DNA of 64,000 nucleotides from an uncultured Clostridia bacterium (GTDB taxonomy: Bacteria; Bacillota; Clostridia; Christensenellales; Borkfalkiaceae), in contig CANQOB010000006.1 in the NCBI GenBank assembly GCA_947625385.1, positions 815-64,814 of the forward strand, given 5' to 3'. Position numbers and translations under genes: made by a program. Every line of letters starts with the position of its first letter. The first letter of the stretch is position 1. Shown piece by piece: positions 6,062-53,095 of the stretch. The notes under the pieces were generated by a model that made no database searches, was not told the DNA's origin, and saw only the letters and a program-made list of their open reading frames with translations.

Positions 6062-6101
6062 AAAGAAAAACAAAGGCTCCCTGTGAGCAAGGAGAAAAAG
6101 C

Positions 6102-7595: not shown

Positions 7596-7613
7596 TGATT
7601 ACGGAGGTAAAAC

Positions 7614-8507
7614 ATGAAAAAATTTTTGACGCTCATCTGCGCGCTCGCCATGTGCTTTGCGCTCGCGGCATGCGGGGAGGGCAATCTGCCCCAAAACCCG
7701 TCCGACGGGGACGGGAAAGAGCAGGGCGGCACCGAAGTCACCGATCCGTCCGACGGGGATGGAGAAGAGCAGGGCGGCACCGAAGTCACCGACCCGTCCG
7801 ACGGGGACGGGGAAGAACAGGGCGGCTCCGAAGTCACCCTCACGGCGGACACCGATTTCGACGCGCTCGTCTCGGACAAGGTGACTGCGGAGGAGTGGGA
7901 TGCGGTGTTCACGAACGAATCGTTCGCGGGCTGCACGGTGGAGTATGCGAGAAGGTCGAACCGTACGAAGGCCTCGTTCGGCTACAAGCCGTTCGACGGG
8001 GGGTACGATTACTACCTCAACGTGTCGACTACCGACGTCTCCGACGGCGCTCCCGTCACCTATTCGCAGGAGATGATCGCCCATATCGAGGGGACGACGG
8101 CAAGACAGTACGGGAAAAATCTCGACGATCCGAACGACCCCGCCTACTATTATGTGGATTTGAATTTGGAGGGGGACGGCGACGTGGATACCGTCGTGGT
8201 CAAAGAGTGGATACTGACGTTCCGCTCCATGATTTCCTACGATTTCTCGGGGAAGAGCGCGCAGTTCTCCTATGACGAGACGCTCGGCGCCTATACCTAT
8301 CAGGGGACAGACCTGCGCGTCAAATATTCGCCGATGGAAGCGGGCGAATACACCGTCGCCAAAGCCGTTTTGAAGTTCGCGGGCGGCAAGCTCGCCTATG
8401 CGGCGGTGACGCTCTCCGGAAACGCCGAAGAGACGTTCAAATACTACGACTACGGCAAGACGGGGACGTTTGTTCCCGAGAACGCGAAGCCCTATACCGC
8501 AAACTGA
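7614..8507 (+). CDS. Lipoprotein of unknown function with a tandem 16-aa acidic repeat
   Basis: Signal peptide and lipobox MKKFLTLICALAMCFALAAC|G are nearly identical to those of the 6102 gene. It carries 3 copies of PSDGDGEEQGGTEVTD. SD GGAGG is present. Confidence 0.7.
   Translation: MKKFLTLICALAMCFALAACGEGNLPQNPSDGDGKEQGGTEVTDPSDGDGEEQGGTEVTDPSDGDGEEQGGSEVTLTADTDFDALVSDKVTAEEWDAVFTNESFAGCTVEYARRSNRTKASFGYKPFDGGYDYYLNVSTTDVSDGAPVTYSQEMIAHIEGTTARQYGKNLDDPNDPAYYYVDLNLEGDGDVDTVVVKEWILTFRSMISYDFSGKSAQFSYDETLGAYTYQGTDLRVKYSPMEAGEYTVAKAVLKFAGGKLAYAAVTLSGNAEETFKYYDYGKTGTFVPENAKPYTAN
7697..7840 (+). repeat. Three in-frame tandem copies of a 48-bp repeat inside the lipoprotein gene
   Basis: CCGTCCGACGGGGA(C/T)GG(G/A)(A/G)AAGA(G/A)CAGGGCGGC(A/T)CCGAAGTCACC... 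begins at 7697, 7745 and 7793. Confidence 0.9.
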
Positions 8508-16411: not shown

Positions 16412-16490
16412 TCGGACGTCCGTAAAAGCGCAAAAGCGAATTCGCTCGTGAAATTTGTTGCCAAAACAAATTTCATGAAAGGAGAAATTT

Positions 16491-28257: not shown

Positions 28258-28556
28258 CCTGCAAGTATCTCAAAAAACACAGATATAAGATCTTGAAACG
28301 CAACTATACGACGCCCTTCGGCGAGGCGGACATCGTGGCGAAGAGCCCCGACGGCTACATCTGTTTCGTGGAAGTCAAGGCGCGGGAGACGGACGCCTTC
28401 GGGCTGCCCACCGAGGCGGTCACGCGGGAAAAACAGCGCAGATACCGCCTGATGGCGCAGTACTGGTGTTTGGGACTCGGCAAAGAAGTCCCCGTCCGGT
28501 TCGACGTCGCTTCCGTCTGGAAGGGCGAACTCGAATATTTCGAGAATGCCTACTGA
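28197..28556 (+). CDS. YraN family (UPF0102) endonuclease-like protein
   Basis: GRQGEDLTCKYLKKHRYKIL.RNY...GEADIVA...FVEVKAR matches the YraN pattern. It overlaps the rnhB 3' end by 61 nt. Confidence 0.8.
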   Translation: MQDSQKDLRKKILGRQGEDLTCKYLKKHRYKILKRNYTTPFGEADIVAKSPDGYICFVEVKARETDAFGLPTEAVTREKQRRYRLMAQYWCLGLGKEVPVRFDVASVWKGELEYFENAY

Positions 28557-28634
28557 GTTCACGAATTTTGTCTTGGCGACAAAATTCCGTGAGGGGTAAA
28601 TGGGAAACGATAAAATATTGGCTGTAAGCGTTTG

Positions 28635-28661
28635 AAAAAAGCGCCCCGGTTTAACCGGGGC
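28635..28661 (-). terminator. Intrinsic terminator of the minus-strand permease gene
   Basis: Perfect 20-bp palindrome CGCCCCGGTTAACCGGGGCG (28642-28661), followed on the minus strand by a U6 tract (A6 at 28635-28640). Confidence 0.75.
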
Positions 28662-28671
28662 GTATCTGTAT

Positions 28672-30148: not shown

Positions 30149-30210
30149 ACAGCGGAAAAGTTGCGAATAATTTGTTCCGCGCAAAATGCGCGCGCGGGCG
30201 GAGAAAATGT

Positions 30211-33200
30211 ATGGCAGTCAAACGAAAAGTCATTACGGAAAAACTTACGGTAGGGCTCTCGTTCCCCAAATACATCGGCTATGCCGATTATTTTTTGCAG
30301 ACTCCCTTGCGGATCCGCATCAAGAGCACCTTCGAGGAAGCGCTCACGCTCACCGTGTCCGTCTCGGGCGCGGAGGGCTTGCTCCTTCCCTATGAGCGGA
30401 CGGTGGAGGTGCCCTTCGAGAGCGCCGTCTCCGTCGAAAACAGCGGCGTGTTCTCGCCCGAGTATCTCGCGGAGGTCACCGAACCCCATACGGTGAGCGT
30501 AAACGTCTCGGTGCGTCTCGACGGGAAGGAGGTCGCGGGAGAATCCGCGGAGATCACCGTTCTGCCCTTCGACTTCTGGGAGGGGCTTTCCGGCAATGCG
30601 GAGAGAATCGCCTGCTTTGTGCGTCCCCGCAACAACGATTGCGCAGTCCTCCTTGCCGATGCAGGCAAACAGCTGAAAAAATGGAGGGCGGACGCCGAAT
30701 TTTACGGCTATTCGGGCACGGACAAGAACACCGTGCGCCGCATTCTTGCCGCCATCTATCAATCCGTCAAGACGGCGGGCATCGCAAAGGACGGGGAGAC
30801 CGACTGCTCCGCGCCCCTTTCCGCCGTGCGGGAGACCTCCGTGCTCAAAGAGAAGCGCGCGACCGCCTTCCAGCTCGCCGTGCTCGCCGCGTCCTGCCTC
30901 GAAGCGGCGCACTTCCACCCCGTCATCGCGGTGGGGAAGGACGTCGCCGTGGGCGTCTGGCTGTACGACAGCTGCTTCCTCGAACCCGCGTTCGACGACG
31001 CGGAGATCGTCGAACGGTATGTCTCGGACGGCATCAATAATTTGAGCTTTTTTGACGCGGACGACCTCTTCGTCGGCAGCAGCGCGCCCTTTACTCCTTC
31101 GGAGGGGCATTTCAGGAGCAAGCTGAAAGAGGGATATTACGAGTATTTCGTCGATATCAGGCGGTGCCGCATGGGGGGCATCGGAAGCTGTCCCATGCGC
31201 GGCAAAAGCATCAAGGGATTCGAGGTTTACAGCGAGGAGAGCGGGGATGAGCCCGCGCCGCTGCCCGTGTTCCGCGACCTCAAACTCGACGGAAAACTTC
31301 CCAAAAACAAACTTTGGGAGAGGCGGCTTCTCGACCTCACCTACAAGAATACCCTGCTCTCCTTCGAGGGGAAGAACGCTCTGCATCTCGCTTCCCCCGG
31401 CTGCGACGCGCTCCTTCTCCGCCTCGCCGAAAAGGGAAGCATGAAACTTAAAGCGGGCGGCGAGGAGGCGTTCGGCGCCGAAGTCTCCCCCCAAAAGAGA
31501 TCGCTCTATGAGCTCGAACAGCAGAAGGGGATCCTGCGCGTGCTCGCCGACCAAAAAACGCTGACCGAGACGGCGGGAAAGCTCCTGCGCAGGCGGCGGG
31601 AAGCCGTGGAAGAGACGGGTGCGAAGATTCTCTATCTCGCGCTCGGATTCCTCAAATACGTCAGCCGTGAGGACGGGCTGCCCAAGTGCGCGCCCCTCGT
31701 CCTCTGCCCCGTCTCCCTTGCGCGAGCAAAGGGGAACGAGGATTTCTCCGTGCTCGCCGCCGACGAGGGGTACTTCGTCAACGCGACGCTGCTCGAATTC
31801 CTCAAACAGGAATTCAACATCGATATCCGCGGGCTGGGCGGGGACGTCTCCGCGCTGAAACTTTCCGAGATCTTCGCCATGGTGCGCGCGGAGACCGCCT
31901 CCATGAAGGGATGGGACATCGCGGAGGACGTCTATCTCTCCGTGTTCTCCTTCCAGAATTTTTTGCTCTGGAACGACATCCGCACGCACATCGACGAGTT
32001 TTCCAAGAACGCGACGGTCTCGGCGCTCCTGACGGGATATGCCGAAAAGCGGGAATTCCCCGCCGCGCAGGAGGAGGACAACGACGACCCGGAGCGCATC
32101 CTCTTGCCTCTGCCGCTCGACAGTTCGCAGTACGGCGCGGTCTCTCTCGCGGACACGGGTGCCTCGTTCGTGCTCCACGGACCCCCGGGAACGGGCAAGA
32201 GCCAGACCATTTCCGCCATCATCGCGAACGCGCTCTTGCACGGAAAGCGCGTGCTCTTCGTCGCCGAAAAGAAGGCGGCGCTCGACGTCGTTAAAAAGAG
32301 GCTCGACGCCATCGGAATCGGCGATTTCAGCCTCGAATTGCATTCCAACAAGACGGACAAGGCGGGCGTTCTGCGCCGCATGGAGGCGACCCTCGCCCTC
32401 GCGGGGAGGGAGGAACCCGTCGGCTTCGGCGAGCGCACGCGCGAGCTCGTCGCCCTCCGCGAAGAGCTCAAAGAGCCCATGCGCGCCCTGCATAAAACAC
32501 GGCGGCTGGGAATCTCCGTCTACCAAGCCATTCTCGGGTACCTCAAAAACAAGAACGCGCCCGATATCCTCGACATCGAGAGCTCCTTCTACGATTCCCT
32601 CGATGAGAAAAAACTCTCCGAATGCAAGCAGATGATTCTCACCGCCGCGGCGGCGGCGAAGGACTGCGGCGGGGTGTTCAACTCGCCCTTCGAGAACGTC
32701 AACCGCACGGTGTATTCCCAGGAGCTGCGCGACCGCCTGTTTTGCGCCTGCGAAGTCATCCTCACCGAGATCAAGCATCTGCGCGCCTTTCTTGCGCTCT
32801 TTCTGGAATTTTACCGCCAGCGCATTTCCACGCTGACGAGAAAAAAACTGCTCTCGCTCACCGAGATCGCGAAAGATCTCGCCTCGGGGAAATACCGCAA
32901 GTACTTTGCGGACGTCGACGAGGGGGAGTTCTATCGCTTCTACAACGCCAACAGAAGGCTGGACGCCTGTCTCGCGTATTATTTCAGACATTTTAAGGCT
33001 CCCGTGGAGACGGAGGACGCCGAGGAGATCGCGCGCATGCTCGAAAACGGCGGGGACTGGAAACTCTTCCGCCCCGCAAGGGCTGCCTTCAAGAGGCTGT
33101 CACGGGTGGCGATTCTCCCGCTCGACGAGGCGGACGCGCCCAAATTTTTGCAGACGCTCGCCGACATCGACGCGGCGCAAAAGCGCATCACGGAGAACAC

Positions 33201-35790
33201 CCCGCTCGGTGCGAATTTCTGCGACCGCAACGGCAGAATCAACGAAAAGAAGAGGCAGGAGTTCCTCAAAGACCTCTATGCCCTGCATGCGCAGGCGGAG
33301 GAGACCTTCCTCGATTACAATCCCGACGCATTCGACGGTATGTGCATCCGCGCCGCAAACGGCTATACCATGCCCGTGCTCGAAGGGTGCATCAAGGCTG
33401 CGGAGAGCTACTTTGCGGCGGAGGGGAGCTTCCTTGCGGTGACCTGCGCGGACCCCGCCAAGGTGCGCGGCGAGGACGTGTTCGACTACTTCTCGCAGAA
33501 GGCTTCCGCGCTCATCGACAACGTGGATATGCTCCCCAACTGGTGCATGTACCGCGCGACGGCGAAAAAACTTGCCGCCATGGGGCTCAACTTCATTACG
33601 GACGCCTTGGAGAGCGGCAGGCTCAAAGTCGAGAACGTGCTTGCGGGCTTCGAAAAGAACGTCTACAAGAACTTCCTCGAGATCACCATTCCGCAGGACG
33701 AGGCGCTTTCCCGTCTGACGGTGGGCACCCTCGAGGATACGGTGGAAAAATTCCGCCTTGCGTGGGAGGAATACAGCAGAATCTCCCGCGACTGTCTGCG
33801 CGCCGCTTTGATCTCCCGTCTGCCGAAGCCGGACGGCGAGGGGATGCTCGGACCGGAGCTCTCCGCGTTCACCCGCCTTGCCAAGACAAACCTGCGCGGC
33901 TCGGGCATCCGCGCGATGCTTGCCGAGATCCCGTCGCTTGCCGCCGTCGTCTGCCCCTGTCTGCTCATGAGCCCCATCACGGTGGCGCAATATCTCAAAC
34001 CCGAGGCGGACGCGTTCGACCTCGTGATCTTCGACGAGGCGTCCCAGATGACGACCGCGGAGGCAGTCGGCTCGATCGCCCGCGCCAAGGCGTGCGTCGT
34101 CGTCGGCGACCCCAAACAGCTCCCGCCCACCGCCTTCTTCCGCTCCTCCTATACGGATGAGGAGGCGGAAGGGGAGGAACTCGAGAGCGTGCTCGACGAC
34201 TGTCTCGCCCTCGGGATGCCCGAGCGGCATCTCCTCTGGCACTACCGCAGCAAGCACGAGAGTCTCATCGCGTTCTCCAACAGCATGTACTACGGCAACC
34301 GGCTGTGCACCTTCCCCTCCCCCGACGCGCTCGAAAGCAGGGTGAAACTCGTCAAGGTGGACGGCACCTACGACCGCGGGTTCACCAAGCGCAACAAGAA
34401 GGAGGCGGAGGCGCTCGTCGCCGAGGTCGTCAGGCGGTTGCAGGATCCGGAACTCTCCAAACGGAGCATGGGAATCGTCACCTTCTCGACGGCGCAGAGG
34501 GACGACATCGAGAGACTTTTGAACCGCGAGATCGCGCGTTTCAAACTCGAAGCCGCCGCATTCGACAGAGAGGAACCGCTCTTCGTCAAGAACCTCGAAA
34601 ACGTGCAGGGGGACGAGCGGGACGTCATCCTGTTCTCCGTCTGTTACGGTCCCGACCGCTTGGGGCGCGTCTCGCTCAATTTCGGACCCCTCAACCAGGC
34701 GGGCGGCTGGCGGCGGCTCAACGTCGCGGTGTCGCGTGCAAGAGAGGAGATGCTCGTGTTCTCCACCATGACCTCGCCCATGATCGACCTCGCAAAAACG
34801 ACGTCCAAGGGCGTCGCGGGGCTCAAAGCGTTCCTCGAATTTGCGGAGAGGGGCAAGACGACGCTTGCCGTGCGCGCCGACAGCGTGCGCTTCGGCGCGG
34901 GAATCGGAAAATACCTCGCCGCCGAACTCGAAAGCTACGGCTACGATTGCCGCTACGACGTGGGCGCCTCCGATTTCAAGCTCGACGTCGCCGTCGTCGA
35001 CCCCAAGAACAAGCACCGCTTTTTGCTCGGCATCCTCTGCGACGGCACGGAGGAATTCTCCGTCAAAGACAGAAATATCTTGCAGGTACAGACCTTAAAG
35101 CGCATGAATTGGAACGTTCTGCGCGTCAACAGCGTCAATTACTATAATAACCCCAAGCGGGAGCTCAAACGCATCAAGGATGTGCTCGACCGCCTGACGG
35201 GCGCGGACAAGAAGGGAGACCGGCTGTCCAAATACCGCAAACCGTACAAATTCGTCAAACAGACCGCCTCCGAGACGGCGGCGTTCGTCACTTCCGGCGA
35301 CAACGACGCGGAGATCGTCGCCCGCCTCAAAGAGATCGTCGCGACGGAGGAACCCATCTCGCGCGCATTTCTGCGGAAACGCTGTCTCATGAGCTTCGGA
35401 ATCGCCAAGAGCGGCACCCGCGTGGACGCCCGTCTCGACGCGCTCATCGACAGCTGCGCCTTCCCCCGCGACCGCGTGCAGGGCGTGGACTACTTCTACA
35501 AGAATCCCCGCTGTCTGCAACTCGGGAAATTCCGCGTGGAGAGCGTTTCTCCCGCTTTGCGGCGGGGGGAGGACGATTTCACGGTGTACGAGGTCGTCTC
35601 CCTCATCAAGGGCGCGCTGGAAGAGCGGGTAGCGCTCTATCCCGACGAGCTCACCGCCCTGCTCGGGAATGTGTTCGCCGATCTGCGCTCGGGAGAACGC
35701 TTCCTCGCGTTTTTGCAAAGCTGTATCACCTACGGCGAAGAGAAGGGACTCTTCGTGAGATCGGTGTCGGATAGGATAAGCTTGGCTTAG
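30211..35790 (+). CDS. Large SF1 (UPF1/DNA2-like) helicase with a DUF4011-like N-region, a restriction-endonuclease-like domain and a DUF3320-like C-terminus
   Basis: Walker A VLHGPPGTGKSQT, Walker B LVIFDEASQM, VVGDPKQLPPT, HYRSKHESLI, VQGDERDVILFS, LNVAVSRAREE. DUF4011-like LLDLTYKNTLLSF. REase-like DVGASDFKLDVAVVD...LGILCDG. SD GGAG lies 8 nt upstream of ATG 30211. Confidence 0.85.
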   Translation: MAVKRKVITEKLTVGLSFPKYIGYADYFLQTPLRIRIKSTFEEALTLTVSVSGAEGLLLPYERTVEVPFESAVSVENSGVFSPEYLAEVTEPHTVSVNVSVRLDGKEVAGESAEITVLPFDFWEGLSGNAERIACFVRPRNNDCAVLLADAGKQLKKWRADAEFYGYSGTDKNTVRRILAAIYQSVKTAGIAKDGETDCSAPLSAVRETSVLKEKRATAFQLAVLAASCLEAAHFHPVIAVGKDVAVGVWLYDSCFLEPAFDDAEIVERYVSDGINNLSFFDADDLFVGSSAPFTPSEGHFRSKLKEGYYEYFVDIRRCRMGGIGSCPMRGKSIKGFEVYSEESGDEPAPLPVFRDLKLDGKLPKNKLWERRLLDLTYKNTLLSFEGKNALHLASPGCDALLLRLAEKGSMKLKAGGEEAFGAEVSPQKRSLYELEQQKGILRVLADQKTLTETAGKLLRRRREAVEETGAKILYLALGFLKYVSREDGLPKCAPLVLCPVSLARAKGNEDFSVLAADEGYFVNATLLEFLKQEFNIDIRGLGGDVSALKLSEIFAMVRAETASMKGWDIAEDVYLSVFSFQNFLLWNDIRTHIDEFSKNATVSALLTGYAEKREFPAAQEEDNDDPERILLPLPLDSSQYGAVSLADTGASFVLHGPPGTGKSQTISAIIANALLHGKRVLFVAEKKAALDVVKKRLDAIGIGDFSLELHSNKTDKAGVLRRMEATLALAGREEPVGFGERTRELVALREELKEPMRALHKTRRLGISVYQAILGYLKNKNAPDILDIESSFYDSLDEKKLSECKQMILTAAAAAKDCGGVFNSPFENVNRTVYSQELRDRLFCACEVILTEIKHLRAFLALFLEFYRQRISTLTRKKLLSLTEIAKDLASGKYRKYFADVDEGEFYRFYNANRRLDACLAYYFRHFKAPVETEDAEEIARMLENGGDWKLFRPARAAFKRLSRVAILPLDEADAPKFLQTLADIDAAQKRITENTPLGANFCDRNGRINEKKRQEFLKDLYALHAQAEETFLDYNPDAFDGMCIRAANGYTMPVLEGCIKAAESYFAAEGSFLAVTCADPAKVRGEDVFDYFSQKASALIDNVDMLPNWCMYRATAKKLAAMGLNFITDALESGRLKVENVLAGFEKNVYKNFLEITIPQDEALSRLTVGTLEDTVEKFRLAWEEYSRISRDCLRAALISRLPKPDGEGMLGPELSAFTRLAKTNLRGSGIRAMLAEIPSLAAVVCPCLLMSPITVAQYLKPEADAFDLVIFDEASQMTTAEAVGSIARAKACVVVGDPKQLPPTAFFRSSYTDEEAEGEELESVLDDCLALGMPERHLLWHYRSKHESLIAFSNSMYYGNRLCTFPSPDALESRVKLVKVDGTYDRGFTKRNKKEAEALVAEVVRRLQDPELSKRSMGIVTFSTAQRDDIERLLNREIARFKLEAAAFDREEPLFVKNLENVQGDERDVILFSVCYGPDRLGRVSLNFGPLNQAGGWRRLNVAVSRAREEMLVFSTMTSPMIDLAKTTSKGVAGLKAFLEFAERGKTTLAVRADSVRFGAGIGKYLAAELESYGYDCRYDVGASDFKLDVAVVDPKNKHRFLLGILCDGTEEFSVKDRNILQVQTLKRMNWNVLRVNSVNYYNNPKRELKRIKDVLDRLTGADKKGDRLSKYRKPYKFVKQTASETAAFVTSGDNDAEIVARLKEIVATEEPISRAFLRKRCLMSFGIAKSGTRVDARLDALIDSCAFPRDRVQGVDYFYKNPRCLQLGKFRVESVSPALRRGEDDFTVYEVVSLIKGALEERVALYPDELTALLGNVFADLRSGERFLAFLQSCITYGEEKGLFVRSVSDRISLA

Positions 35791-36185
35791 GTTTCGCGCG
35801 ATTTCTTTTGCTGCGCAAAATAAATACGCGCGAGCGAATGAGCATGTATGCCTCAATAAGCTTGATTCCGATTATATGTTTCATCGGACAGTAAGCCTGC
35901 GGTGGCGTTGCAAATGGGGTCGCGCAGCGCAAAAGCGTGGTTTTGCTCGCGCACAAAATTTAAGAATTTCGGCGAAAATCTTTGCTGCGCAAATATTTTC
36001 GTCGAGCGAATGGGCGTTGGCGGCTTAATTGACTTGGCTCCGATTAGATGTTTCATCGGACAGTAAGCCGAAAGGGTTCGGCAACTTGGGTCGCCCACGG
36101 CGGAAGTGAATTCCGCCTAAGGCACAAAATTTAAGAGTTTCGCGCGGTTTCTTTTGCTGACGCAAAATAAATACGCGCGAGCGAA
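35791..36185 (+). repeat. Array A of an unrecognised hairpin-rich intergenic repeat: units 35791-35966 and 35967-36137 plus a terminal head module 36138-36185
   Basis: Head-to-tail units share head modules (GTTTCGCGCGATTTCTTTTGC..GCAAAATAAATACGCGCGAGCGAA and TTTCGGCGAAAATCTTTGC..GCAAATATTTTCGTCGAGCGAA), the core CCGATTAGATGTTTCATCGGACAGTAAGCC and the tail ACAAAATTTAAGA. The array starts directly after the helicase stop codon. Confidence 0.9.
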
Positions 36186-36233
36186 GAGGAGTCAAGGCTT
36201 CGAGGGCTCGATCGTATTCGTTCATCAAATCGG

Positions 36234-36262
36234 TTGACAAATACCGCGGTTTGTGATACAAT
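36234..36262 (+). promoter_or_regulatory. Sigma-A type promoter of ktrBA
   Basis: TTGACA at 36234-36239, 17-bp spacer, TACAAT at 36257-36262. Confidence 0.5.
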
Positions 36263-37794: not shown

Positions 37795-38448
37795 ATGATT
37801 TCCGTGTTATTGATCGGTATGGGAAAATTCGGGCGGACGCTCGGCGAGCAGCTCCTCAGCATGGGCGACGAAGTTATGATCGTCGACAAAAAAGAGGACG
37901 TCATCAACACGCTCGCGCCCCGCTATACCAACGCGCTCATCGCGAACTGCGCCGAGGCGGACAATCTCCGCGTCATGGATATCCCTTCCTTCGACGTGTG
38001 CATCGTCGCCATCGGCGAGGACTTCCAGTCCTCCCTTGAGATCACTTCCAATCTCAAAGATCTCGGCGCGAAACGGGTCATCTCCAAGGCTTCGACCGAG
38101 ATTCAACGCAAATTCCTCCTCCGCGAGGGCGCGGATGAGGTCATCTATCCCGACCGCGATATCGCAGAGAAGCTCGCCGTCCGCCTCAATTCCTCCAACG
38201 TCATCAATTTTATCGACCTCGACGCCCGCTATTCCATCTTCGAGATCGCATGCCCAGCAAAGTGGCAGGACAAAAAACTTATCGACGTCAACCCGCGCAA
38301 ACGGTACGGCATGAATATCCTCACCGTCAAAAAGGGAGACGAGGTCATCACGAGCCTCGACGGGGAGTATGTGTTCACTGCGGGGGATCAACTCGTCGTG
38401 TTCGGCGACACGCAGACCATTCTCAAATTTACGAACTCGCACAAATAG
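37795..38448 (+). CDS. ktrA: Potassium uptake regulatory subunit, TrkA-N/KtrA type
   Basis: Rossmann motif LLIGMGKFGRTLG, with RCK_N and RCK_C in 217 aa. SD AGGAG is upstream of ATG 37795. Confidence 0.85.
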   Translation: MISVLLIGMGKFGRTLGEQLLSMGDEVMIVDKKEDVINTLAPRYTNALIANCAEADNLRVMDIPSFDVCIVAIGEDFQSSLEITSNLKDLGAKRVISKASTEIQRKFLLREGADEVIYPDRDIAEKLAVRLNSSNVINFIDLDARYSIFEIACPAKWQDKKLIDVNPRKRYGMNILTVKKGDEVITSLDGEYVFTAGDQLVVFGDTQTILKFTNSHK

Positions 38449-38670
38449 TTTCGGCGAAAATCTTTCCTGCGGAAATATTTTCGTCGAGCGAATAGGCGGG
38501 TATGCTTTAATAAACGTGATTCCGATTAGATGTTTCAACGGACAATGTGCGTCCCGTGGGGCGCAAATGCAGTGAAAAAGCAAAAAGTGTGATTTTTGCT
38601 TTTTCCTTTATTTTTAGGTTTCGCGCGATTTCTTTTGCTGACGCAAAATAAATACGCGCGAGCGAATAGG
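38449..38670 (+). repeat. Array B of the same repeat family: unit 38449-38617 plus a terminal head module 38618-38670
   Basis: Same module order as arrays A and C. It starts at the nucleotide after the ktrA stop codon TAG (38446-38448). Confidence 0.9.
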
Positions 38671-38690: not shown

Positions 38691-38721
38691 AAAAAATCCT
38701 CGCTTGCGGCGAGGATTTTTT
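38691..38721. terminator. Bidirectional intrinsic terminator (fba on the - strand; repeat array B on the + strand)
   Basis: AATCCTCGC (38695-38703) pairs with GCGAGGATT (38709-38717), flanked by an A6 tract and a T6 tract. Confidence 0.75.
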
Positions 38722-45900: not shown

Positions 45901-46448
45901 GCGACAAGATCGAGAAGATTCACATGGTCGAGAACTATAACTACTACGGTCTCGACCCGTGGGACCGCTTCACCGTCCTCGCCGAGCGCACGAACAAGAA
46001 CGGAACGCATACGGTCTACGCCGAAGGACAGCGGCAGAACGGCTATGGCGTCATCGGCGTGCTCTATACCATCTCCTACAATGCGGATACCGACATTATT
46101 ACGATGGAGGAGAAGCGCGACGGGAACAACATGACGGGCATGGTGTCGGTAGAATTCGATACAGCGCATGAAACGCAGGCGCCGTATGACAGGCTGACCG
46201 TCAACGTCATCACCTACACGGCGGGAGATGAAGAGGCGCACATGTTCGCCTTCGGCTCCGTACGTCACTTCGAGTACGATACGCAGCGCAACACGTACCT
46301 CTCCACCTATCCGGAATATACCGTGACGGAGGCGGACTACCTCAACGGCACATTCACCGTGCAGGTCGGCGATACGACCTATACGGTCACGACGAGCTAC
46401 GACGAAGAGACGGCGGCTTGGAAGCTCGCAGTCACCGTCGCCGAGTAA
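39960..46448 (+). CDS. Giant (2162 aa) cell-surface lipoprotein with Listeria-Bacteroides (Flg_new) repeats and a BspA-type LRR segment
   Basis: Signal peptide and lipobox LAFAVAAC|T. At least 4 N-terminal repeats of the VTFDANGG...F.GW type. LRR_5-like segment around nt 44640-45130 (IDAHAF, IGDYAF, VGDYAF, IGVNAF). Long D/E/T/Y-rich central region with no recognisable domain. Confidence 0.8.
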   Translation: MSKKLKKILITVLAAAFAAVLAFAVAACTNTTVSVTFDANGGEFEGGKQSVSVEGNAGEELKVPQDPARGGFNFIGWASEKDGDPVGVPEKIPEESQTYYACWIPEGEVAVTFDANGGNFAGNTLRVLTGKPGDVLVPPQDPTREGFSFSEWSSTKNGTLTSVPMVFPDHNLTFYAIWQETGAQSYTLTVTYGIRDGRVGAQTTRVRDVLPGTSIAGALAEVDPASGDSEIVFDGWYYADGTKLAEGAAMPAENLTLRAKYTVAYTLTVSLQEKDGETYGEPSTTTERGFYGERFTYQAPEGFETDARHEGSKFSSERLDKGETFTVFAARRRYTVTFTVGGNGVNEARDFLTLWYGAEYVIPSFETTSLSGMVPADVFVFSWTTAEGDTLRAGDTLTVSGAMTVRGDISFGKTDIFGGDDHLFVDGDTAFLRRGALERMGSFDRTTGVFRFENGGKEVLGGVAMSETFYFYNDTTEKDYVDFFGGAAKLRFLYHGEAEYTPAGSSSAASGKLTVSEETGRYTFTPADGGDSVEFTLDVLYDAHDVPHPAFRTESEHEEGAFARLEDKSDPYGYDYTVLVFDGFGYVTEYYDPTLADSSDEYEREFFGHYNGSVGRYYRYTDELWAGAEYYTIEFPDGDSYTVELTFADGLPALDNRPLAGTWFAYDGMLGEGDYLVGVPIAGGRAAGFCAGINASNASLILDGFGNALLDLGATYDETNCTYADLHWTGTYVIRSEVVYGYGLDGMGAYTSATMLDWIEYTDSETGEVTLYSFDMSYRTYAEMASAPKRYTVAADDLSIFGTSVMEEYFYKSKIPFTEVLFLDVRGDATEIYIYGRRDDAPIWSATDGREIVALYEPIEAGVATHADGVYTFTSSSQTPTIATMRFTLNEVTMTVDVLSGAEEPAEEQIITDEETGEVFRLDESGAAYYQKSESDEEVEITAHRDTLGEEDDDFETGEQYAVWRSGFYRFDLPDGTTAYFTYRIEEDGSVTYTRIEEPTFYTLTSASYLDRPELEIYFYKTDDGKYYLGYMPDDGYTFWAGETTPIEGIDNAFTFVMQETFRETFEYYTGVSTENLRLKLSESDHTFVLYDGTLTATDSLTNTTMSTDGFGTLTLTVGGEETQYPYALRDVGDGKTVLVYATYAKEYVNDDGLTIGQAEEHYIIVDTANNTFVFAEKDAGVYYAASLTSGGVGIAQYAFELDGDGHVILSEPNVAERRGTYEETGTLANSATMLSLVGFEYDLTLYTFTFTDEEGNEDKVDVAAFHTNELTYVMDGETYLFVPLGFFFERMPAATADIKTEDGMGFIKSDGYVSYNTIAIADAVYDNGMRVYVGTVMRGTYVNDSFYAEERDFVFDEEGTGTMLLFEAYDENNEVSDQFFFDIIEKDGVEYARLRTTDSGLYVETVGGDITNNTLLLDGYGNATLTRSGEEIEGTVERVDGEWGSYIFTGKDDNETTFKFGLFLLTANSGDYVYTFVYANDGDAAGYLVGDDWSVLYLDDYFNAYYIDHAGKRYDGAYSFLTERRSIASLTLEDGSILYFDLDFEHGSFELDERDFIVEEGGDGTLLAYTGNGSISKFPDEVKRITRNSFPYGDYISAPGTMDLNKVEVIDAHAFHFVNLGASLISGPNVREIGDYAFRQEFFDFGEYGIYHSVSAFSFPNAVSVGDYAFCGDYTVSSFVFGSALQSIGVNAFSVRQGLPVSLDLSAMTAEELAAVSIGENAFQSYYLGEPVDNSIINALVYVKDVETLVAFWKDGTWPLAFRNGATLRSAHADDLDGYDFYSFSAGKYLHFSEGRVSFIGEDGTSEPQAMYFIEEDGSVKVIRRSANDEVSYVELVRTDDIIQYGGHKYFRASNLMKGNTQHGVQLDDGVMFYFELLITRDIEDDAYESRSVRGVYVNDRSEDARIVPESYDYADGKLTIVFVYDGTDIAKGKYTVTVDLEGDTLSATYSMIDQRYVYNVEEGTSYNRSSYRILADFAGDKIEKIHMVENYNYYGLDPWDRFTVLAERTNKNGTHTVYAEGQRQNGYGVIGVLYTISYNADTDIITMEEKRDGNNMTGMVSVEFDTAHETQAPYDRLTVNVITYTAGDEEAHMFAFGSVRHFEYDTQRNTYLSTYPEYTVTEADYLNGTFTVQVGDTTYTVTTSYDEETAAWKLAVTVAE

Positions 46449-46461
46449 GCGAAAAACAAAG

Positions 46462-46487
46462 AAGGACGGCAGACGCCGTCCTTTTTT
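46462..46487 (+). terminator. Intrinsic terminator after the giant lipoprotein gene
   Basis: AAGGACGGC, loop AGAC, GCCGTCCTT, followed by a T-run. Confidence 0.8.
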
Positions 46488-46499
46488 CATGGGTTTTCC

Positions 46500-46528
46500 T
46501 TGACAAGAGAGGGGATTTCGGGTACAAT
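46500..46528 (+). promoter_or_regulatory. Sigma-A type promoter of ruvC
   Basis: TTGACA at 46500-46505, 17-bp spacer, TACAAT at 46523-46528. Confidence 0.5.
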
Positions 46529-46534
46529 AAAAAT

Positions 46535-47032
46535 ATGGTCATTCTTGGGCTGGACCCCGGCTACGGCACGATGGGGTACGGCGTCATCGAAAAGGACGCA
46601 AGGGGAAATTGCACCTGCGTGGACTATGGTGCGGTCAAGACTCCCGCCTCGGAGAGCTTCCCCGTGCGGCTGTGCATGCTCGAAGAGGGCGTCAATGCGC
46701 TGTTCGACAAATTTCATCCCGAAGAAGCGGCAATGGAGGAGCTGTTCTTCTCCAAAAATATCACGACGGGTATCGCCGTCGCGCATGCGCGCGGGGTCAT
46801 TCTGCTCACCTGCAACAAGCGCTGCGGCAGAATCTTCGAATATACGCCCAATCAGATCAAACAGGCGCTCACGGGCTACGGCGGCGCGGATAAAGGGCAG
46901 ATGCAGAGGGTGGTCGCCTCGCATCTGCGCCTCAAAAGGATTCCTCGTCCCGACGACGCCGCGGATGCCCTCGCCGTCGCGCTCTGCCATGCGTTCACGA
47001 GCAGATTTTCGGGGATGTTTGGAATCAAATAA
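46535..47032 (+). CDS. ruvC: Crossover junction endodeoxyribonuclease RuvC
   Basis: ILGLDPGYGTMGYGVI ... EELFF ... DAADALAVALCH. ATG 46535 follows a consensus promoter. Confidence 0.9.
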   Translation: MVILGLDPGYGTMGYGVIEKDARGNCTCVDYGAVKTPASESFPVRLCMLEEGVNALFDKFHPEEAAMEELFFSKNITTGIAVAHARGVILLTCNKRCGRIFEYTPNQIKQALTGYGGADKGQMQRVVASHLRLKRIPRPDDAADALAVALCHAFTSRFSGMFGIK

Positions 47033-47034
47033 GA

Positions 47035-47424
47035 TTTCGGCGAAAATCTTTGCGTGCGCAAATCTTTTCGTCGAGCGAATTTACTTCTGCGCCTTAACGA
47101 ACTTGGCTCCGATTAGTCGTTTCAACGGACAGTGTGCGTCCCGTGGGGCGCAAATTGTGTCGCGCAGCGCAAAAGCGTGGTTTTGCTCGCGCACAAAATT
47201 TAAGAGGTTTCGCGCGATTTCTTTTGCATTCGCAAAATAAATATGCGCGAGCGAATGGGCGTTTACGCCTCAATAGGCTTGGCTCCGATTAGTCGTTTCA
47301 TCGGACAGTGTGCGTCCCGTGGGGCGCAAATTGTGTCGCGCAGCGCAAAAGCGTGGTTTTGCTCGCGCACAAAATTTAAGAGTTTCGGCGAAAATCTTTG
47401 CGTGCGCAAATCTTTTCGCCGAGG
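47035..47424 (+). repeat. Array C of the same repeat family: units 47035-47206 and 47207-47382 plus a terminal head module 47383-47424
   Basis: Segments 47101-47206 and 47277-47382 are identical apart from one mismatch. The array starts 2 nt after the ruvC stop codon. Confidence 0.92.
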
Positions 47425-47481
47425 CAAAAATACAAAAGATACGAACTAAATTCACCGCGATAGAGCGCGGAAAGAGGATAT

Positions 47482-48084
47482 ATGATCGGGTATCTGAAAG
47501 GAAAAGTGAAACATGTGGCTCCCGAGAGCGTGCTTTTGGAAGTCGGCGGCGTCGGCTACGAGATCGTGTGCTCCGGTGCGGCGTTTTCCCGCCTTGCGAG
47601 CGTCAAGAGCGGCGAGGAGGGCGAAGTCTTTACCTATCTGCGCGTTTCGGAGGACGACATCACCCTCTTCGGCTTTGCGGACCTTCGCGAAAAGGAGCTC
47701 TTTTTGCGGCTCACCTCCGTGCAGGGCGTGGGGGCGAAAGTCGCCATGAGCATCCTCTCCTCCATGCGCCCCGCAGATGTCTCCGAGGCGATCGCAACGG
47801 CGGATGCAAAGCGGCTCTCCGCGGCAAAGGGCGTGGGCAAAAAGGTTGCCGAACGCATCATTTTGGAGCTGCACGGCAAGATCTCCGCGGACGAGCTCCT
47901 CGGCTCGGAATCGGTGGGCGGGAGAGTATCGGCGGCACCCATGTCCGAGGATGAGGACGCAGTTTCCGCGCTCATGGGGCTCGGATTCACACGGCAGGAG
48001 AGCGCGCAGGCGGTCTCCCGCGCAAAGGCGCAAGGGGCGAAGTCCGTCGAGGAGATCATCGCAACGGCTCTGAGGGGGATATGA
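47482..48084 (+). CDS. ruvA: Holliday junction DNA helicase subunit RuvA
   Basis: MIGYLKGKV ... VGGVGYEI ... LTSVQGVGAKVA, typical of RuvA. Confidence 0.9.
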   Translation: MIGYLKGKVKHVAPESVLLEVGGVGYEIVCSGAAFSRLASVKSGEEGEVFTYLRVSEDDITLFGFADLREKELFLRLTSVQGVGAKVAMSILSSMRPADVSEAIATADAKRLSAAKGVGKKVAERIILELHGKISADELLGSESVGGRVSAAPMSEDEDAVSALMGLGFTRQESAQAVSRAKAQGAKSVEEIIATALRGI

Positions 48085-48878
48085 TGAAGGAGTTCACCGT
48101 CAAGGAAGGGACCGTCAAGGTGGACGGCATGGAAGTCGAGGAGGACTGTACCCGCCTCATCCTTCCGCCGAGCGTAAGAGAGATCGACGACTTTGCCTTC
48201 TTCGGCAACGGGACGCTTGAAGAGGTCGTCTTTTCCGAGGGGCTTCAACGCATCGGGGACTGTGCGTTCCGCGAATGCACGGCGCTCAGATCGCTCGTCT
48301 TTCCCGCGAGCCTGCAAACGGTCGGAAGTTCGGCGTTCATGGACTGCTCTTCCCTCGAAAGCGCCGTCTTTACGGGCGGCGGTCCCAAGGAGCTCCCCAC
48401 GGAGATGTTCTGCAACTGCAAGGCATTGAAAACGGTTCGGCTCGGTTCGGCGCTCCAAAATCTGAGTACGGGCATGGAGATCGGCGGCACCTTCGAAGAT
48501 TGCCTCTCGCTCGAAGAGATCGTTTTGCCCGAAGGGTGCGAGATCATCGACTGGGCGGCATTTTCGGGCTGCAAAAACCTCTCCCGCATCGTGCTCCCCT
48601 CCACATTGCAGAAGGTCGGCGAGAAATCGCTCTACGGCACGGCGGTCAAAGAGCTCGTCTTTGCGGAGGGGCTTCGGAGCCTCTGGAAGGCGATATACGG
48701 CTGCGAAAAGCTCACGCGCATCGTGCTCCCCTCCACGGTGACGTCGCTCTCCTACAAGGAGTTCGGCGGGGGACTTCCGAGCCTTCGCGAAGTCGTTTTG
48801 CCGAAAAGGTTCGAAGGGGACCTCGAGCTGTACTTTCAAAAAGAGGACTTCAGGCGCATCCACATCACGTTTATTTGA
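48081..48878 (+). CDS. BspA-type leucine-rich repeat (LRR_5) protein with no signal peptide
   Basis: Repeats of the form I.D.AF..C..L..VV.P..L..IG..AF. The start overlaps the ruvA stop (ATGA). Confidence 0.75.
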   Translation: MMKEFTVKEGTVKVDGMEVEEDCTRLILPPSVREIDDFAFFGNGTLEEVVFSEGLQRIGDCAFRECTALRSLVFPASLQTVGSSAFMDCSSLESAVFTGGGPKELPTEMFCNCKALKTVRLGSALQNLSTGMEIGGTFEDCLSLEEIVLPEGCEIIDWAAFSGCKNLSRIVLPSTLQKVGEKSLYGTAVKELVFAEGLRSLWKAIYGCEKLTRIVLPSTVTSLSYKEFGGGLPSLREVVLPKRFEGDLELYFQKEDFRRIHITFI

Positions 48879-48887
48879 GGAAGAACC

Positions 48888-49940
48888 ATGTTTGACGACG
48901 ACTTAGAGGAGGGCAGACTGCTCTCCGGCAACAAGAGCGAGCTCGACATCGAGGAAAATATCCTCCGTCCCAAGACGATGGAGGAGTACGTTGGGCAGGA
49001 AAAGGTCAAGGAAAACCTTGCGGTCTACATCGCCGCGGCAAAACAGCGCGGCGAGGCGCTCGACCACGTCCTTTTGTACGGTCCCCCCGGGCTCGGCAAG
49101 ACAACGCTCGCGCACATCATCGCGAACACGATGGGGACGCAGATCAAGGTGACGAGCGGACCCGCCATCGAGCGCGCGGGAGACCTCGCCGCCATCCTTA
49201 CCAATCTCAACGAGGGGGATATCCTCTTCATCGACGAGATTCACCGCCTCAACCATCAGGTGGAGGAGATCTTGTATTCCGCGATGGAGGATTATGCCCT
49301 CGACATCATCGTGGGGAAGGGTCCGTCCGCGCGCAATATCCGTTTTTCCCTGCGCAGGTTCACCCTCATCGGGGCGACGACGCGCGCGGGGATGCTCTCC
49401 TCGCCGCTTCGGGACCGCTTCGGCATCATGTGCCGTCTCGATATGTATTCTCCCGAAGAGCTCCAACGCATCGTCACCAGATCGGCGCGCACCCTCGGCA
49501 TCTCCATCGAGGAGGACGGGGCGTTCGAGATCGCACGGCGCTCGCGCGGCACGCCGCGCATCGCAAACCGGCTCTTGAAGCGCGTGCGGGATTTTTCCGT
49601 CGTGCTCGGTTCCTCCGCCGTCTCCCGCGGGGACGCCATGAAGGCGCTTGCCCGCATGGAGATCGACGAACTCGGGCTCGACGAGACCGACCGCAACCTC
49701 CTGCGCGCGCTGATCGAGAAATTCAACGGCGGACCCGCGGGGCTCGATACGCTCGCCGCGACCATCAACGAGGACGTCGGGACCATAGAGGACATCTACG
49801 AGCCCTACCTTTTGCAGCTCGGGTTCATCGCCCGCACGCCGCGCGGCAGGGTGTGTCTGAAAGGCGGTTATGAGCACATGGGGGTCAGAATGCCCGAGAG
49901 CGTACGGCGGCAACTTTCCGTGTTCGATACGGACGATTAA
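48888..49940 (+). CDS. ruvB: Holliday junction DNA helicase RuvB
   Basis: [12 protein letters not shown], Walker [10 protein letters not shown], Walker [10 protein letters not shown]. Confidence 0.93.
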
Positions 49941-49958
49941 AACGAAAAGGGGAAAAGC

Positions 49959-50765
49959 ATGGCGATCCAAGTAAAAAACCACGTTCTCATAAACGGCTGG
50001 GGAGAGGGCGGAGATCTCGTCATCCCGAGCGCTGTGGACGGAGCCGCCATCGAGGCGATCGGCATGAGCGCGTTTTTCGCAAATGCGCGGCTTACGGGCG
50101 TCACGATCCCGCGCGGCGTGAAACGAATCGGGGACAGTGCATTCTGCGGCTGTGAAAACATGAGGGCCGTTACCCTTCCGGAGGGGTTGCAAACGATCTG
50201 CGCGAGCGCGTTCCGCGGTTGCAGTTCTCTTCGGAGCGTCGTCATTCCGGACGGCATGACGGGCATCGGACCGAGCGCATTTGCTTCCTGTACTTCACTT
50301 GAGCACGTCGTCCTTCCCAAAGGCATGACGGACATTTCCTATGGTGCATTCTACGGCTGCACTTCTCTGAAAAGCGTCGTCTTTTCGGGCAGCATGAAGT
50401 CGATCGGACCAAAAGCATTTTCGCAGTGCACTTCCCTGAAAAGCGTCGTCTTTCCTGACGGCGCGGAACTCTCGGAAGACATCTTGGAAGGATGTTCCGC
50501 CCTCGAGAGCGTCGATCTGACGGCGTCGTCGGATTACTACCATGATCCGATGCCCCGCATCAACGCCCCCGCTACCCTCAAAAGGGTGAGCATCAGGGCA
50601 TGGAAAAACTCGTCGTGGGACGTTTGCGGCGGCAACTACAATTGGACCGGGTGGCTCCATGAGCTCCTTTCCGCGAATCCCGGCATCCGCGAACTCATTC
50701 TTCCCAAGGATGCCGAGACCGGACATGTGCCCATCCCCCCGAACTGCCGCATTACAAGAAGATAG
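49959..50765 (+). CDS. BspA-type leucine-rich repeat (LRR_5) protein with no signal peptide
   Basis: Repeats: [59 protein letters not shown]... Confidence 0.75.
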
Positions 50766-50773
50766 AATTCACG

Positions 50774-51772
50774 ATGAAAACTTCGGATTTTAACTACGAT
50801 CTGCCCGAGGAGCTCATCGCGCAGACCCCTGCGGAGCCGCGGGATTCTTCGCGGCTCTTAGTCTACCGCAGGGACACCAAAACCATCGAGCACCGCATCT
50901 TCCGCGACATCACGGACTATCTCAGAGCGGGGGATGTGCTCGTCGTCAACCGCACGCGGGTGCTGCCCGCGCGTCTCTTTGCCTATACCGAAAAGGGCGC
51001 AAAGGTGGAACTGTTGCTCCTCAAACGGCTCGCAATCGACGAGTGGGAGACCCTCGTAAAGCCCGGGAAGAAGTGCAGACCGGGGAAGCGGCTCACCGTG
51101 AACGGGGAGCTCTCCCTCGAGATCCTCTCCGTGACCGAGAGCGGCGAACGGCGGGTGAAGTTCTTCTTCGAGGGCGCCTTCGAGGACGTGCTCTCGCGCG
51201 TCGGCACCGTGCCGTTGCCGCCCTATATCCACGAAAAGCTGCAAGACCCCGAACGCTACCAGACGGTGTACTCCAAGGAGAACGGCTCCGCGGCGGCGCC
51301 CACCGCGGGACTGCACTTTACGAACGGACTTTTGGAGAAGATTCGCGGCATGGGGGTGGAGATCGTCGAAGTTCTGCTCCATGTCGGGCTCGGGACCTTC
51401 CGACCCGTCAAAGAAGAGGACGTGGAAAAACACGTCATGCACAGCGAATTTTACGAGGTCTCCGAGGAGGCAGCCGCCGCCGTCAACCGCGCCAAGCAGG
51501 AGGGCAGAAGGGTGATCTGTGTGGGGACGACTTCGGTGCGCACGCTCGAGTCCGTTGCGGACATGGGTGGCACGATTCATGCGGGAAGCGGGGAAACGAG
51601 CATCTTTTTGTACCCGCCCTACCGCATGAAGTGCGTGGATGCGCTCATCACCAATTTCCACCTTCCCCAGAGCACGCTGCTCATGCTTGTGTCCTGCCTC
51701 TGCTCGCGGGAGGAAGTCCTCGAAATCTACAAAGTGGCGGTCGAGGAGAAATATCGTTTCTTTTCTTTCGGC

Positions 51773-51793
<21 letters not shown>
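50774..51793 (+). CDS. queA: S-adenosylmethionine:tRNA ribosyltransferase-isomerase
   Basis: [12 protein letters not shown] ... TAGLHFT ... [10 protein letters not shown] ... RFFSFGDA. Confidence 0.92.

Positions 51794-53095
<1,302 letters not shown>

Follow-up and report, generated by a model that had tools for sequence, protein, structure and literature searches.

The stretch analysed here, hereafter the window, comprises 64,000 nucleotides (nt) of contig CANQOB010000006.1 from an uncultured Clostridia bacterium of the Borkfalkiaceae (assembly GCA_947625385.1) and contains a family of non-coding, hairpin-rich intergenic repeats with a repeat length of about 172-176 bp. Five full units are distributed in three arrays (A, B and C), all on the plus strand, and their coordinates, put forward in an earlier note on this DNA, are confirmed by sequence reading and by a repeat finder. 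Array A (35791-36185) starts 0 nt after the TAG stop codon (35788-35790) of a helicase gene and contains unit A1 (35791-35966), whose head hairpin belongs to flavour 1, unit A2 (35967-36137), with a head of flavour 2, and a terminal head of flavour 1 (36138-36185). Array B (38449-38668) starts 0 nt after the TAG of trkA (38446-38448) and contains unit B1 (38449-38619), with a head of flavour 2, and a terminal head of flavour 1 (38620-38668). Array C (47035-47424) lies between ruvC, whose TAA stop codon (47030-47032) is followed by the dinucleotide GA, and ruvA, and contains unit C1 (47035-47207; head of flavour 2), unit C2 (47208-47382; head of flavour 1) and a terminal head of flavour 2 (47383-47424). 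The start of each array is therefore 0-2 nt past a stop codon. The arrays show a G+C content of 42-51%, versus 59.6% for the whole window.

Each unit is about 175 nt long and shows a fixed order of modules: the head (P1), the helices P2 and P3, the motif GACAAnAAG, helix P4, the motif CAAAUUGRG, helix P5 and an A/U-rich tail. P1, with about 16-20 bp, is an imperfect hairpin that retains its pairing while its sequence changes freely. P2 is opened by GAG(C/G)G and encloses a small hairpin, P4 (hairpin 2) has about 5-6 bp and is followed by the single-stranded CAAAUUGRG, and P5 (hairpin 3) is composed of an outer stem, a 1-nt bulge, a C/U mismatch, a purine-rich 5' arm and a 6-nt loop in which G alternates with a pyrimidine and the last base is a purine (GYGYGR, for example GCGUGG). 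The P5 20-mer CGCAAAAGCGTGGTTTTGCT of unit A1 (35928-35947, plus strand) is found identical in C1 (47168-47187) and C2 (47344-47363), and unit B1 shows the hairpin 3 variant GAAAAAGCAAAAA/TTTTTGCTTTTTC. The varying stems quoted for hairpins 2 and 3 in the earlier note are present, with the reservation that hairpin 2 of A1 is poorly formed. The core pattern TCCGATTANNNGTTTCANCGGACA occurs five times in the window and in none of 100 shuffles. The segment that had been described as a conserved core (CTTGGCTCCGATTAG..TTTCAWCGGACAGT) is present in the units of the window, and its conservation does not extend further, since it is specific to this genome and the relatives described below retain only GACAAnAAG. 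The exact core pattern of the window has no match in GTDB species genomes, JGI/ENA metagenomes or IMG/VR, so the core is lineage-specific. The bodies of the units are 57-90% identical within the window, the highest value being that of C1 and C2 (90%), though their heads differ in flavour. Between loci of one genome the bodies diverge fast (57-83% identity), and heads of the same flavour keep 79-94% identity.

The head hairpin is about 45 nt long and occurs 9-10 times in the window. When a head-only covariance model (R2) was scanned over both strands, all eight array heads were recovered with 33.7-61.1 bits on the plus strand, and the same sites gave 13-17 bits on the reverse strand. The two flavours that had been proposed are real, with 79-94% identity within and 64-73% between them, and they alternate along every array: 1-2-1 in A, 2-1 in B and 2-1-2 in C. 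A terminal head follows the last unit in the three arrays. The earlier count of eight heads in a single orientation holds for the eight strong plus-strand heads and is incomplete, as R2 also finds a ninth, solo head and a weak antisense one. The solo head (28556-28599, plus strand; 27.5 bits, E 3.9e-5) belongs to a third flavour, GTTCACGAATTTTGTC..GACAAAATTCCGTGAGGGG, which is the common type in relatives; its first base coincides with the final A of the TGA stop codon of a UPF0102 (YraN-like) gene, and it indicates that heads exist without bodies. A GC-rich terminator-like hairpin lies 3' of it, at about 28640-28665. The weak, degenerate head is on the minus strand (16439-16480; R2 16.2 bits, E 0.04; nhmmer E about 1e-4) together with CGAGCGAAT. 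It lies in antisense orientation in the spacer that separates purD from the FGAM synthase gene, with its end just ahead of the ribosome-binding site of the latter, and is probably a decayed antisense copy. In minimum-free-energy folds of whole arrays (47035-47429 and 35791-36187), the array is closed as a panhandle by pairing between its first and last heads, which share a flavour. This predicted panhandle may be an artefact of having two copies of one palindrome, or may be the reason why neighbouring heads differ in flavour.

Further copies, whose existence the earlier note had left to be searched for, were found in related genomes and in metagenomes. The neighbourhoods of ruvA were taken from 80 related species genomes, in which the best RuvA identity to that of the window is 86%. 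These relatives are metagenome-assembled genomes of uncultured Clostridia from rabbit, sheep, chicken and mouse gut, some of them labelled Christensenellaceae, Candidatus Gallimonas, Coproplasma or Borkfalkiaceae. With an nhmmer profile built from the five units, 31 further copies were located in 20 of the 80 ruvA loci, including those of two named Gallimonas species. A scan with the hairpin 3 20-mer collected at least 120 metagenome loci (loci of both sets bear numbers preceded by L), and among the matches listed the family is present in 76 of 120, which come from gut metagenomes; with these loci added, the nhmmer total is at least 136 copies. The order of modules is constant across copies while their sequence shifts: a variable head, GAG(C/G)G, a helix with a small hairpin, GACAAnAAG, hairpin 2, CAAATTGRG, hairpin 3 and an A/T-rich tail. 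Many metagenome loci show a subfamily, named type B, which has the head and the domain formed by hairpin 2, CAAATTGRG and hairpin 3 in common with the family of the window and a different middle: GAGGGCGTTGCCCTC, a helix TTGCCGCAAT..ATTGCGGCAA, and ATTCACC..CTGAG. Examples of type B, within loci L081-L199, are L113 373-567, L122 876-1069 and L185 5142-5359. Some units have no middle modules (L051). The repeats are thus part of a lineage-wide superfamily of non-coding, modular, interspersed repeats in uncultured gut Clostridia (Christensenellaceae/Gallimonas-like).

Other, unrelated intergenic repeats lie beside the family in relatives: one starting with GCAAACGCATTC..GCGCACAGCACAGTGCGCTGTGCGCGGCGTTTGC, a CCTGTCATCCTGAGGAGCGAAGCGACGAAGGATC-like palindrome and C-rich CCCCTCCC blocks. 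They are located at L001 330-440 and 9020-9140, in the ruvC-ruvA spacer of L024, and downstream of units in L087, L100 and L105. The genomes of the relatives appear rich in several repeat families.

The fold of the unit is supported by the pattern of substitutions among copies. A five-helix consensus was drawn on an alignment of 19 sequences and converted into a covariance model (R1), which was searched in 97 loci (0.96 Mb) with E up to 1e-3 and matched 142 copies. Across these copies, as aligned to the model, standard pairs occupy 90.7% of cells, versus 64.6% when columns are shuffled and 40-53% with partners displaced by 1-3 columns (slid controls). Double changes are found in 40 of 42 pairs, and the covariation score is 0.377, versus about 0.055 for the slid controls, with none of 500 shuffles reaching the observed value. 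The paired percentage is 87-96 in the head, 83 in P2, 68 in P3, 96 in P4 and 97-98 in P5; P3 is weak and is not relied on, and the pair counts support the remaining helices. The 69 heads aligned to R2, with 16 modelled pairs, show 89% pairing (72% when shuffled) and compensatory changes in 12 of the 16 pairs. RNAalifold, applied to a structure-free MAFFT alignment of 37 units, predicts both hairpin 2 and hairpin 3, and 12 of their 14 pairs are compensatory, and the variation of hairpin 3 within the family includes both CGGAGGG..CCCTCCT and CGCAGGG..CCCTGCT. Whole arrays fold more stably than their shuffles (array C, z = -5.2; array A, z = -2.6). The covariation that the earlier note had asked for on aligned copies is therefore strong, and its proposal that the fold, instead of simple recent duplication, accounts for the pattern gains support both from this covariation and from the copies in divergent genomes: the helices are kept with different stem sequences in genomes whose RuvA is only 62-86% identical, which excludes simple recent duplication.

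The weakest explanation, that the repeats result from chance or recent local tandem duplication, or are a misread CRISPR or attC array, draws on the head-to-tail units and the 90% identical bodies of C1 and C2 and is considered refuted, since copies are found at four or five loci of the window and about 100 other loci in many genomes, the stretches between heads are homologous to each other (57-90%), no cas gene or integrase is matched in the 48 of 50 ORFs of the window that were scanned, and the heads, which by sequence reading begin with (G)TTYSNS and end with SNSGAG, show the reverse of the attC consensus RYYYAAC...GTTRRRY.

The genes flanking the arrays place the units between genes and behind stop codons. 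Upstream of array A, and outside the element, is an open reading frame (ORF) of 1872 aa on the plus strand (30172-35790), helicase/REase-like, with Pfam domains DUF4011/AAA_11/AAA_12/MTES_1575. Downstream, a strong sigma-70-like promoter (36234-36262, plus strand; TTGACA-17-TACAAT with TG) serves trkH; as trkH has its own promoter past array A, the array is an element of the 3' untranslated region (UTR) of the helicase gene and not a trkH leader. Array B lies between the trkA stop codon and an intrinsic terminator (38691-38721, plus strand) with a 14-bp stem and a T run, and the terminator is followed by a convergent aldolase gene. Array C is flanked by ruvC (46418-47032) and ruvA (47482-48084), both on the plus strand. 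No promoter-like site was found within arrays A-C, and the sole terminator-like call within them is the A/T-rich hairpin 3 of unit B1 (38574-38605). The units have no promoter or terminator of their own and are parts of 3' UTRs or intercistronic spacers.

The same placement extends to the wider set of 126 arrays. An upstream gene was called for 110 of them, and the array is sense to this gene in 80 cases and antisense in 30; 85 of the 99 with both flanks called lie between genes that are co-directional with each other, in an operon-like arrangement. Of the 80 sense arrays, 35 start from -6 to +5 nt from the stop codon, and in about 10 antisense arrays the head ends 10-20 nt ahead of the next start codon, flush with its ribosome-binding site.

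Orthologous junctions differ in their content of units. The ruvC-ruvA spacer is 0-20 nt long in most of the 80 relatives; it is filled directly 3' of the ruvC stop codon in the window, L025, L029 and L015, filled in the reverse orientation in L010, L011 and L022, and contains only the 5' arm of a head in L001. In six relatives ilvN and ilvD are separated by an empty spacer of 0-37 nt; in nine others this spacer is filled right after the stop codon. Genomes that share more than 96% identity in the flanking proteins carry different numbers and kinds of units. Neither target duplications nor terminal inverted repeats are visible at filled versus empty ruvC-ruvA and ilvN-ilvD junctions. This presence and absence at orthologous junctions indicates that the element is mobile and has a fast turnover, and these features mark a proliferating, recombining repeat rather than a fixed regulatory site. 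The bases 5' of the heads vary (TAG, TAAGA, TGA, ATG, GGG); a fixed TAG insertion target was considered and rejected, TAG being frequent beside heads but inconstant as a motif.

The strand that folds can be read from the imperfect pairs. The ratio of G-U pairs to A-C mismatches is 17:1 in P4 and 77:18 in P5, and the plus strand of array C is more stable than the minus strand by 19 kcal/mol, both of which indicate that the folding strand is the sense strand of the neighbouring genes. In the window, 47 of the 50 called genes are on the plus strand and the GC and AT skews are mostly positive, which probably makes the plus strand the leading one; the folding strand would then be accessible as the template of lagging-strand synthesis as well. 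The conserved fold is compatible with RNA and with single-stranded DNA (ssDNA) alike, and the data do not separate them.

Taken together, the reading given first place here, with a probability of about one half, is that the family is a REP/BIME- or BOX-like modular repeat which is co-transcribed, is selected for its sense-strand fold, acts in cis as RNA and spreads non-autonomously. The units would be transcribed within the mRNA of the upstream gene, with selection keeping the sense-strand fold, and would act as a structured barrier and processing module shielding the upstream cistron from 3'-to-5' exonucleases. The long duplexes of the heads may be entry sites for a double-strand RNase, separating cistrons, and P5 may be a protein-binding hairpin. 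Proliferation would be non-autonomous, with the head as the smallest independently occurring module, as suggested by the existence of solo heads and half-heads, and arrays would lengthen or shorten by addition or recombination at heads. The cis-RNA role is ranked first because five helices and two single-stranded linkers are kept across genera, beyond what an end-binding transposase would need.

Several observations weigh against this cis-acting RNA. The head shows no asymmetry of G-U pairs over A-C mismatches (57:43). The sense bias and the G-T asymmetry fit a hairpin of ssDNA on the lagging-strand template equally well. About 27% of arrays are antisense to their neighbours, unlike what a strict function at the RNA level would give. 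The flush placement may in part result from selection, as a junction of only 10-20 nt has a single neutral spot, between the stop codon and the ribosome-binding site; flush placement nevertheless persists where room is ample (arrays A and B, and the solo head). The terminal head is found by eye in several relatives and is not universal, with R2 detecting just 49 of 139 unit heads there. The pair counts come from model-fitted alignments of copies that are related by descent and not independent; the structure-free alignment and the slid controls indicate that the covariation signal is nevertheless real. Finally, transcription, processing and effects on mRNA are inferred.

A close second to the cis-RNA role, and a possible if tentative explanation, is a purely selfish, non-autonomous element that moves as ssDNA, in the manner of REP/RAYT or IS200/IS605. 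An HUH/Y1 transposase that recognises hairpins and is encoded at another place in the genome would move it, the conserved hairpins would be features of this transposase and of ssDNA, and arrays would form by repeated adjacent insertion. Such an element would account for the presence and absence of units at orthologous junctions in both orientations, for the lack of terminal inverted repeats and target duplication in the sequences read, for the TAG, TAA or TAAGAG-like sequences ahead of heads, and for the probable position of the folding strand as lagging-strand template; the flanking genes show no functional theme, and the solo heads and half-heads resemble solo REPs. The head flavours vary by genome, as cognate REPs differ between genomes (PMC2817692). 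Y1/HUH transposase, TnpB and RAYT genes have no match among the 48 of 50 ORFs scanned in the 64 kb of the window, and clustering of the ORFs around copies in the 120 metagenome loci among the matches listed gives no recurrent mobility gene or other recurrent cluster. The head and P5, as the two end hairpins, have no sequence relationship to each other, which sets them apart from the ends of IS200/IS605, and the heads are all direct, not alternating as in BIMEs. No single fixed tetranucleotide precedes them, and the five helices and two linkers kept across genera exceed the needs of an enzyme that recognises ends.

An unlikely explanation is that the arrays are polycistronic precursors of small RNAs (sRNAs), in which cleavage of the head duplexes would free bodies of about 125 nt to act as a trans-acting regulator or a protein sponge, the terminal head providing the second processing hairpin. 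The form (head-body)n-head of all three arrays of the window and of several relatives agrees with it, as do heads that are duplexes of 16-20 bp, the strong G-U asymmetry in P4 and P5, and the single-stranded CAAAUUGRG and GACAAnAAG, which could be recognition sequences. The units of relatives, however, are mostly single, with no recognisable terminal head detected behind them, solo heads occur with no body, and some units do not have middle modules (L051). The bodies, moreover, diverge fast (57-83%) while heads of the same flavour stay at 79-94%.

Very improbable is an RNA-mediated mobile element whose folded transcript would be copied into DNA by a reverse transcriptase acting in trans, with sense insertions behind expressed genes being favoured. 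The conservation of a whole-unit fold on the sense strand, the sense bias and position behind expressed genes, the A/U-rich tail and the rapid turnover of copies agree with such a mechanism. Against them stand the 27% of arrays that are antisense and the absence of a reverse transcriptase gene both in the window and recurrently near copies; poly-A-like or target-primed signatures were not seen, and we know of no bacterial precedent for elements copied from RNA in this way.

The P5 hairpin is not restricted to the family. In 44 of the 120 metagenome loci among the matches listed (L084-L200) the family is absent and CGCAAAAGCGTGGTTTTGCT lies inside other small structured intergenic elements, for example at L102 5986-6094, L093 1940-2065 and L084 491-631. 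Their host contigs range from 29 to 63% GC and come from marine, sediment and gut samples, and the elements show either orientation to their neighbours. Class I elements are about 105 nt long, with inverted GGATTATCGGCAA/TTGCCGAAATCC arms as their boundaries; hairpins with loops that read GGA on the opposite strand abound in classes II and III, and one of these hairpins overlaps a stop codon upstream of a gene with an N-terminus that, by eye, looks sufC-like. Variant hairpins occupy the same slot in the same contigs and follow the same rule (for example CGCAAAATCGTCGTTTTGCT and CGCAGAGGCGCGACTCTGCT), in parallel with the variation in the family of the window. The rule comprises a C/U mismatch, G-C and C-G pairs, four purine-pyrimidine pairs and a GYGYGR loop. 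Rfam gave nothing relevant on loci of these other classes, in gathering and in permissive modes. A 'Pistol' match of 21.6 bits on one class I locus was discarded as noise, as it was not reproduced in two other class I loci. BLAST of the hairpin against plasmids and E. coli genomes returned only Walker-A-coding stretches of ABC transporter genes. A link to phages was also rejected: the 20-mer is found in one IMG/VR contig, which is also a metagenome locus, and a looser pattern in seven contigs, none of which fits the covariance model. It is a doubtful but conceivable suggestion that P5 is an ancient recognition module for a widely distributed protein or mobilisation machinery, since the corresponding position is taken by it, or by variants that obey the rule, in at least three further types of element. 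If so, the repeats of the window would be one branch of a set of cross-phylum structured elements built around one hairpin, either processed RNAs or elements mobilised through an RNA or ssDNA fold, and a common P5 ligand would link many intergenic elements that look unrelated.

The rest of the window was annotated with 50 ORFs called by a crude script based on third-codon-position GC, which may miss very small genes, and 48 of the 50 were scanned against Pfam. The matches comprise purine biosynthesis genes, rimM-trmD-ylqF-rnhB, trk, fba, ruvCAB, queA-tgt-yajC-secDF-recJ-relA and surface proteins. As the earlier note had stated for the window, no transposase, RAYT, integrase, cas or reverse transcriptase is matched in these 48 ORFs. 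The Y1_Tnp domain has no match among them either. Two BspA-type leucine-rich-repeat genes (48081-48878 and 49959-50765) interrupt the otherwise conserved ruvA-ruvB-queA cluster and explain the short direct repeats at 48276-50462. In a pair of adjacent ORFs with no Pfam match, the start regions (6084-6167 and 7596-7679) are 80% identical and contain a ribosome-binding site and a lipoprotein-like signal peptide, and the second ORF contains three 48-bp tandem repeats (7696-7838). Another 48-bp direct repeat, 77% identical (51767-51814 and 51922-51969), covers the last part of queA and the first part of tgt.

Interspersed structured repeats such as REP/BIME, BOX and Correia elements influence the stability of mRNA, the polarity of operons and the plasticity of genomes, and they are known almost only from cultured model bacteria. 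Here, abundant uncultured gut Clostridia carry an elaborate counterpart, with five helices, covariation and stop-flush arrays inside housekeeping operons (ruvCAB, ilvND, trk). For annotators it gives a model to mask or label regions that would otherwise draw false calls of ORFs and 'novel ncRNA', and the family is a concrete test case of whether selection on such repeats operates through RNA or through ssDNA.

Among known families, Rfam 15 gave no match at gathering score over the whole window, and with E up to 10 only microRNA, ctRNA and aceE-II noise of 11-16 bits, in agreement with the earlier note, which did not recognise a known Rfam family; the Rfam families IS605-orfB and HEARO are absent among these matches. 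A literature search on the hairpin sequence found nothing. The family is thus previously uncatalogued, without a match in Rfam or in the searchable literature. Bridge-RNA and TnpB-guide readings were rejected on anatomy and on the missing partner genes. A type III toxin-antitoxin locus, ToxI-like with tandem repeats of about 36-40 nt ahead of a terminator and an endoribonuclease toxin gene, was likewise rejected, as the unit has about 175 nt and the downstream neighbours are trkH, ruvA, or a terminator and the aldolase gene.

Palindrome-associated elements (PATEs) derived from IS200/IS605, and the right ends of these elements that give TnpB guide RNAs, show subterminal hairpins, no inverted repeats, no target duplication and a length of about 150-200 nt. 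The unit is similar in its subterminal hairpins, in the absence of inverted repeats and duplication, in an orientation compatible with the lagging-strand template, and in size. It differs in that head and P5 are unrelated hairpins, there is no fixed target tetranucleotide, and tnpA and tnpB are found neither in the window nor as recurrent neighbours of copies. In Neisseria, the Correia/NEMIS elements, like other hairpin-forming miniature inverted-repeat transposable elements (MITEs), have terminal inverted repeats and a TA target duplication, and their mRNA hairpin is a potential RNase III substrate. The likeness lies in being small, non-autonomous, intergenic, co-transcribed repeats with a long mRNA hairpin, and the difference in that the first and last 20-25 nt of the unit are not inverted copies of each other and no duplication is visible at filled versus empty sites. 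A MITE or terminal-inverted-repeat model was rejected, since the arms of one head match each other and not the tail, and heads of flavours 1 and 2 flank the same body.

In the Gram-positive Streptococcus pneumoniae, the BOX elements (boxA-boxB(n)-boxC), together with RUP and SPRITE, are modular, hairpin-rich intergenic repeats with modules that are repeated or missing, without an encoded transposase and limited to a narrow clade. They are co-transcribed and were judged likely to affect the genes transcribed with them, by way of secondary structure (PMC3049150). The likeness of the family to BOX is one of organisation only, by description, with no sequence relationship evident. BOX has other modules and does not form stop-flush, head-to-tail arrays of whole units, whereas the family of the window spans many species and genera with subfamilies of types A and B.

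REP/BIME, found in Enterobacteria, Pseudomonas and Stenotrophomonas, are abundant extragenic imperfect palindromes located after genes within transcription units, species-specific in their sequence, non-coding and of fast turnover, and REPs occur solo or as composite, regularly spaced mosaics with more than one type of palindrome plus other motifs (PMC2817692). The family differs from them in several respects. The REPs of BIMEs alternate in orientation, whereas the heads of the window are all direct (34-61 versus 13-17 bits), as are the arrays of relatives. The head, of about 45 nt, is longer than a REP, and between heads there is a covarying four-helix body of about 125 nt instead of a short linker motif. 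The host clade is Clostridia, and no RAYT, the cognate Y1 transposase whose gene is flanked by two inverted REPs, is found among the 48 of 50 ORFs scanned in the 64 kb of the window. In other respects they agree: the head, an imperfect extragenic palindrome in many copies, corresponds to a REP, the arrays correspond to BIMEs, and both families are extragenic, solo or mosaic and protein-free. Since REP/BIME and BOX elements behave similarly, the repeats of the window are not a new kind of feature.

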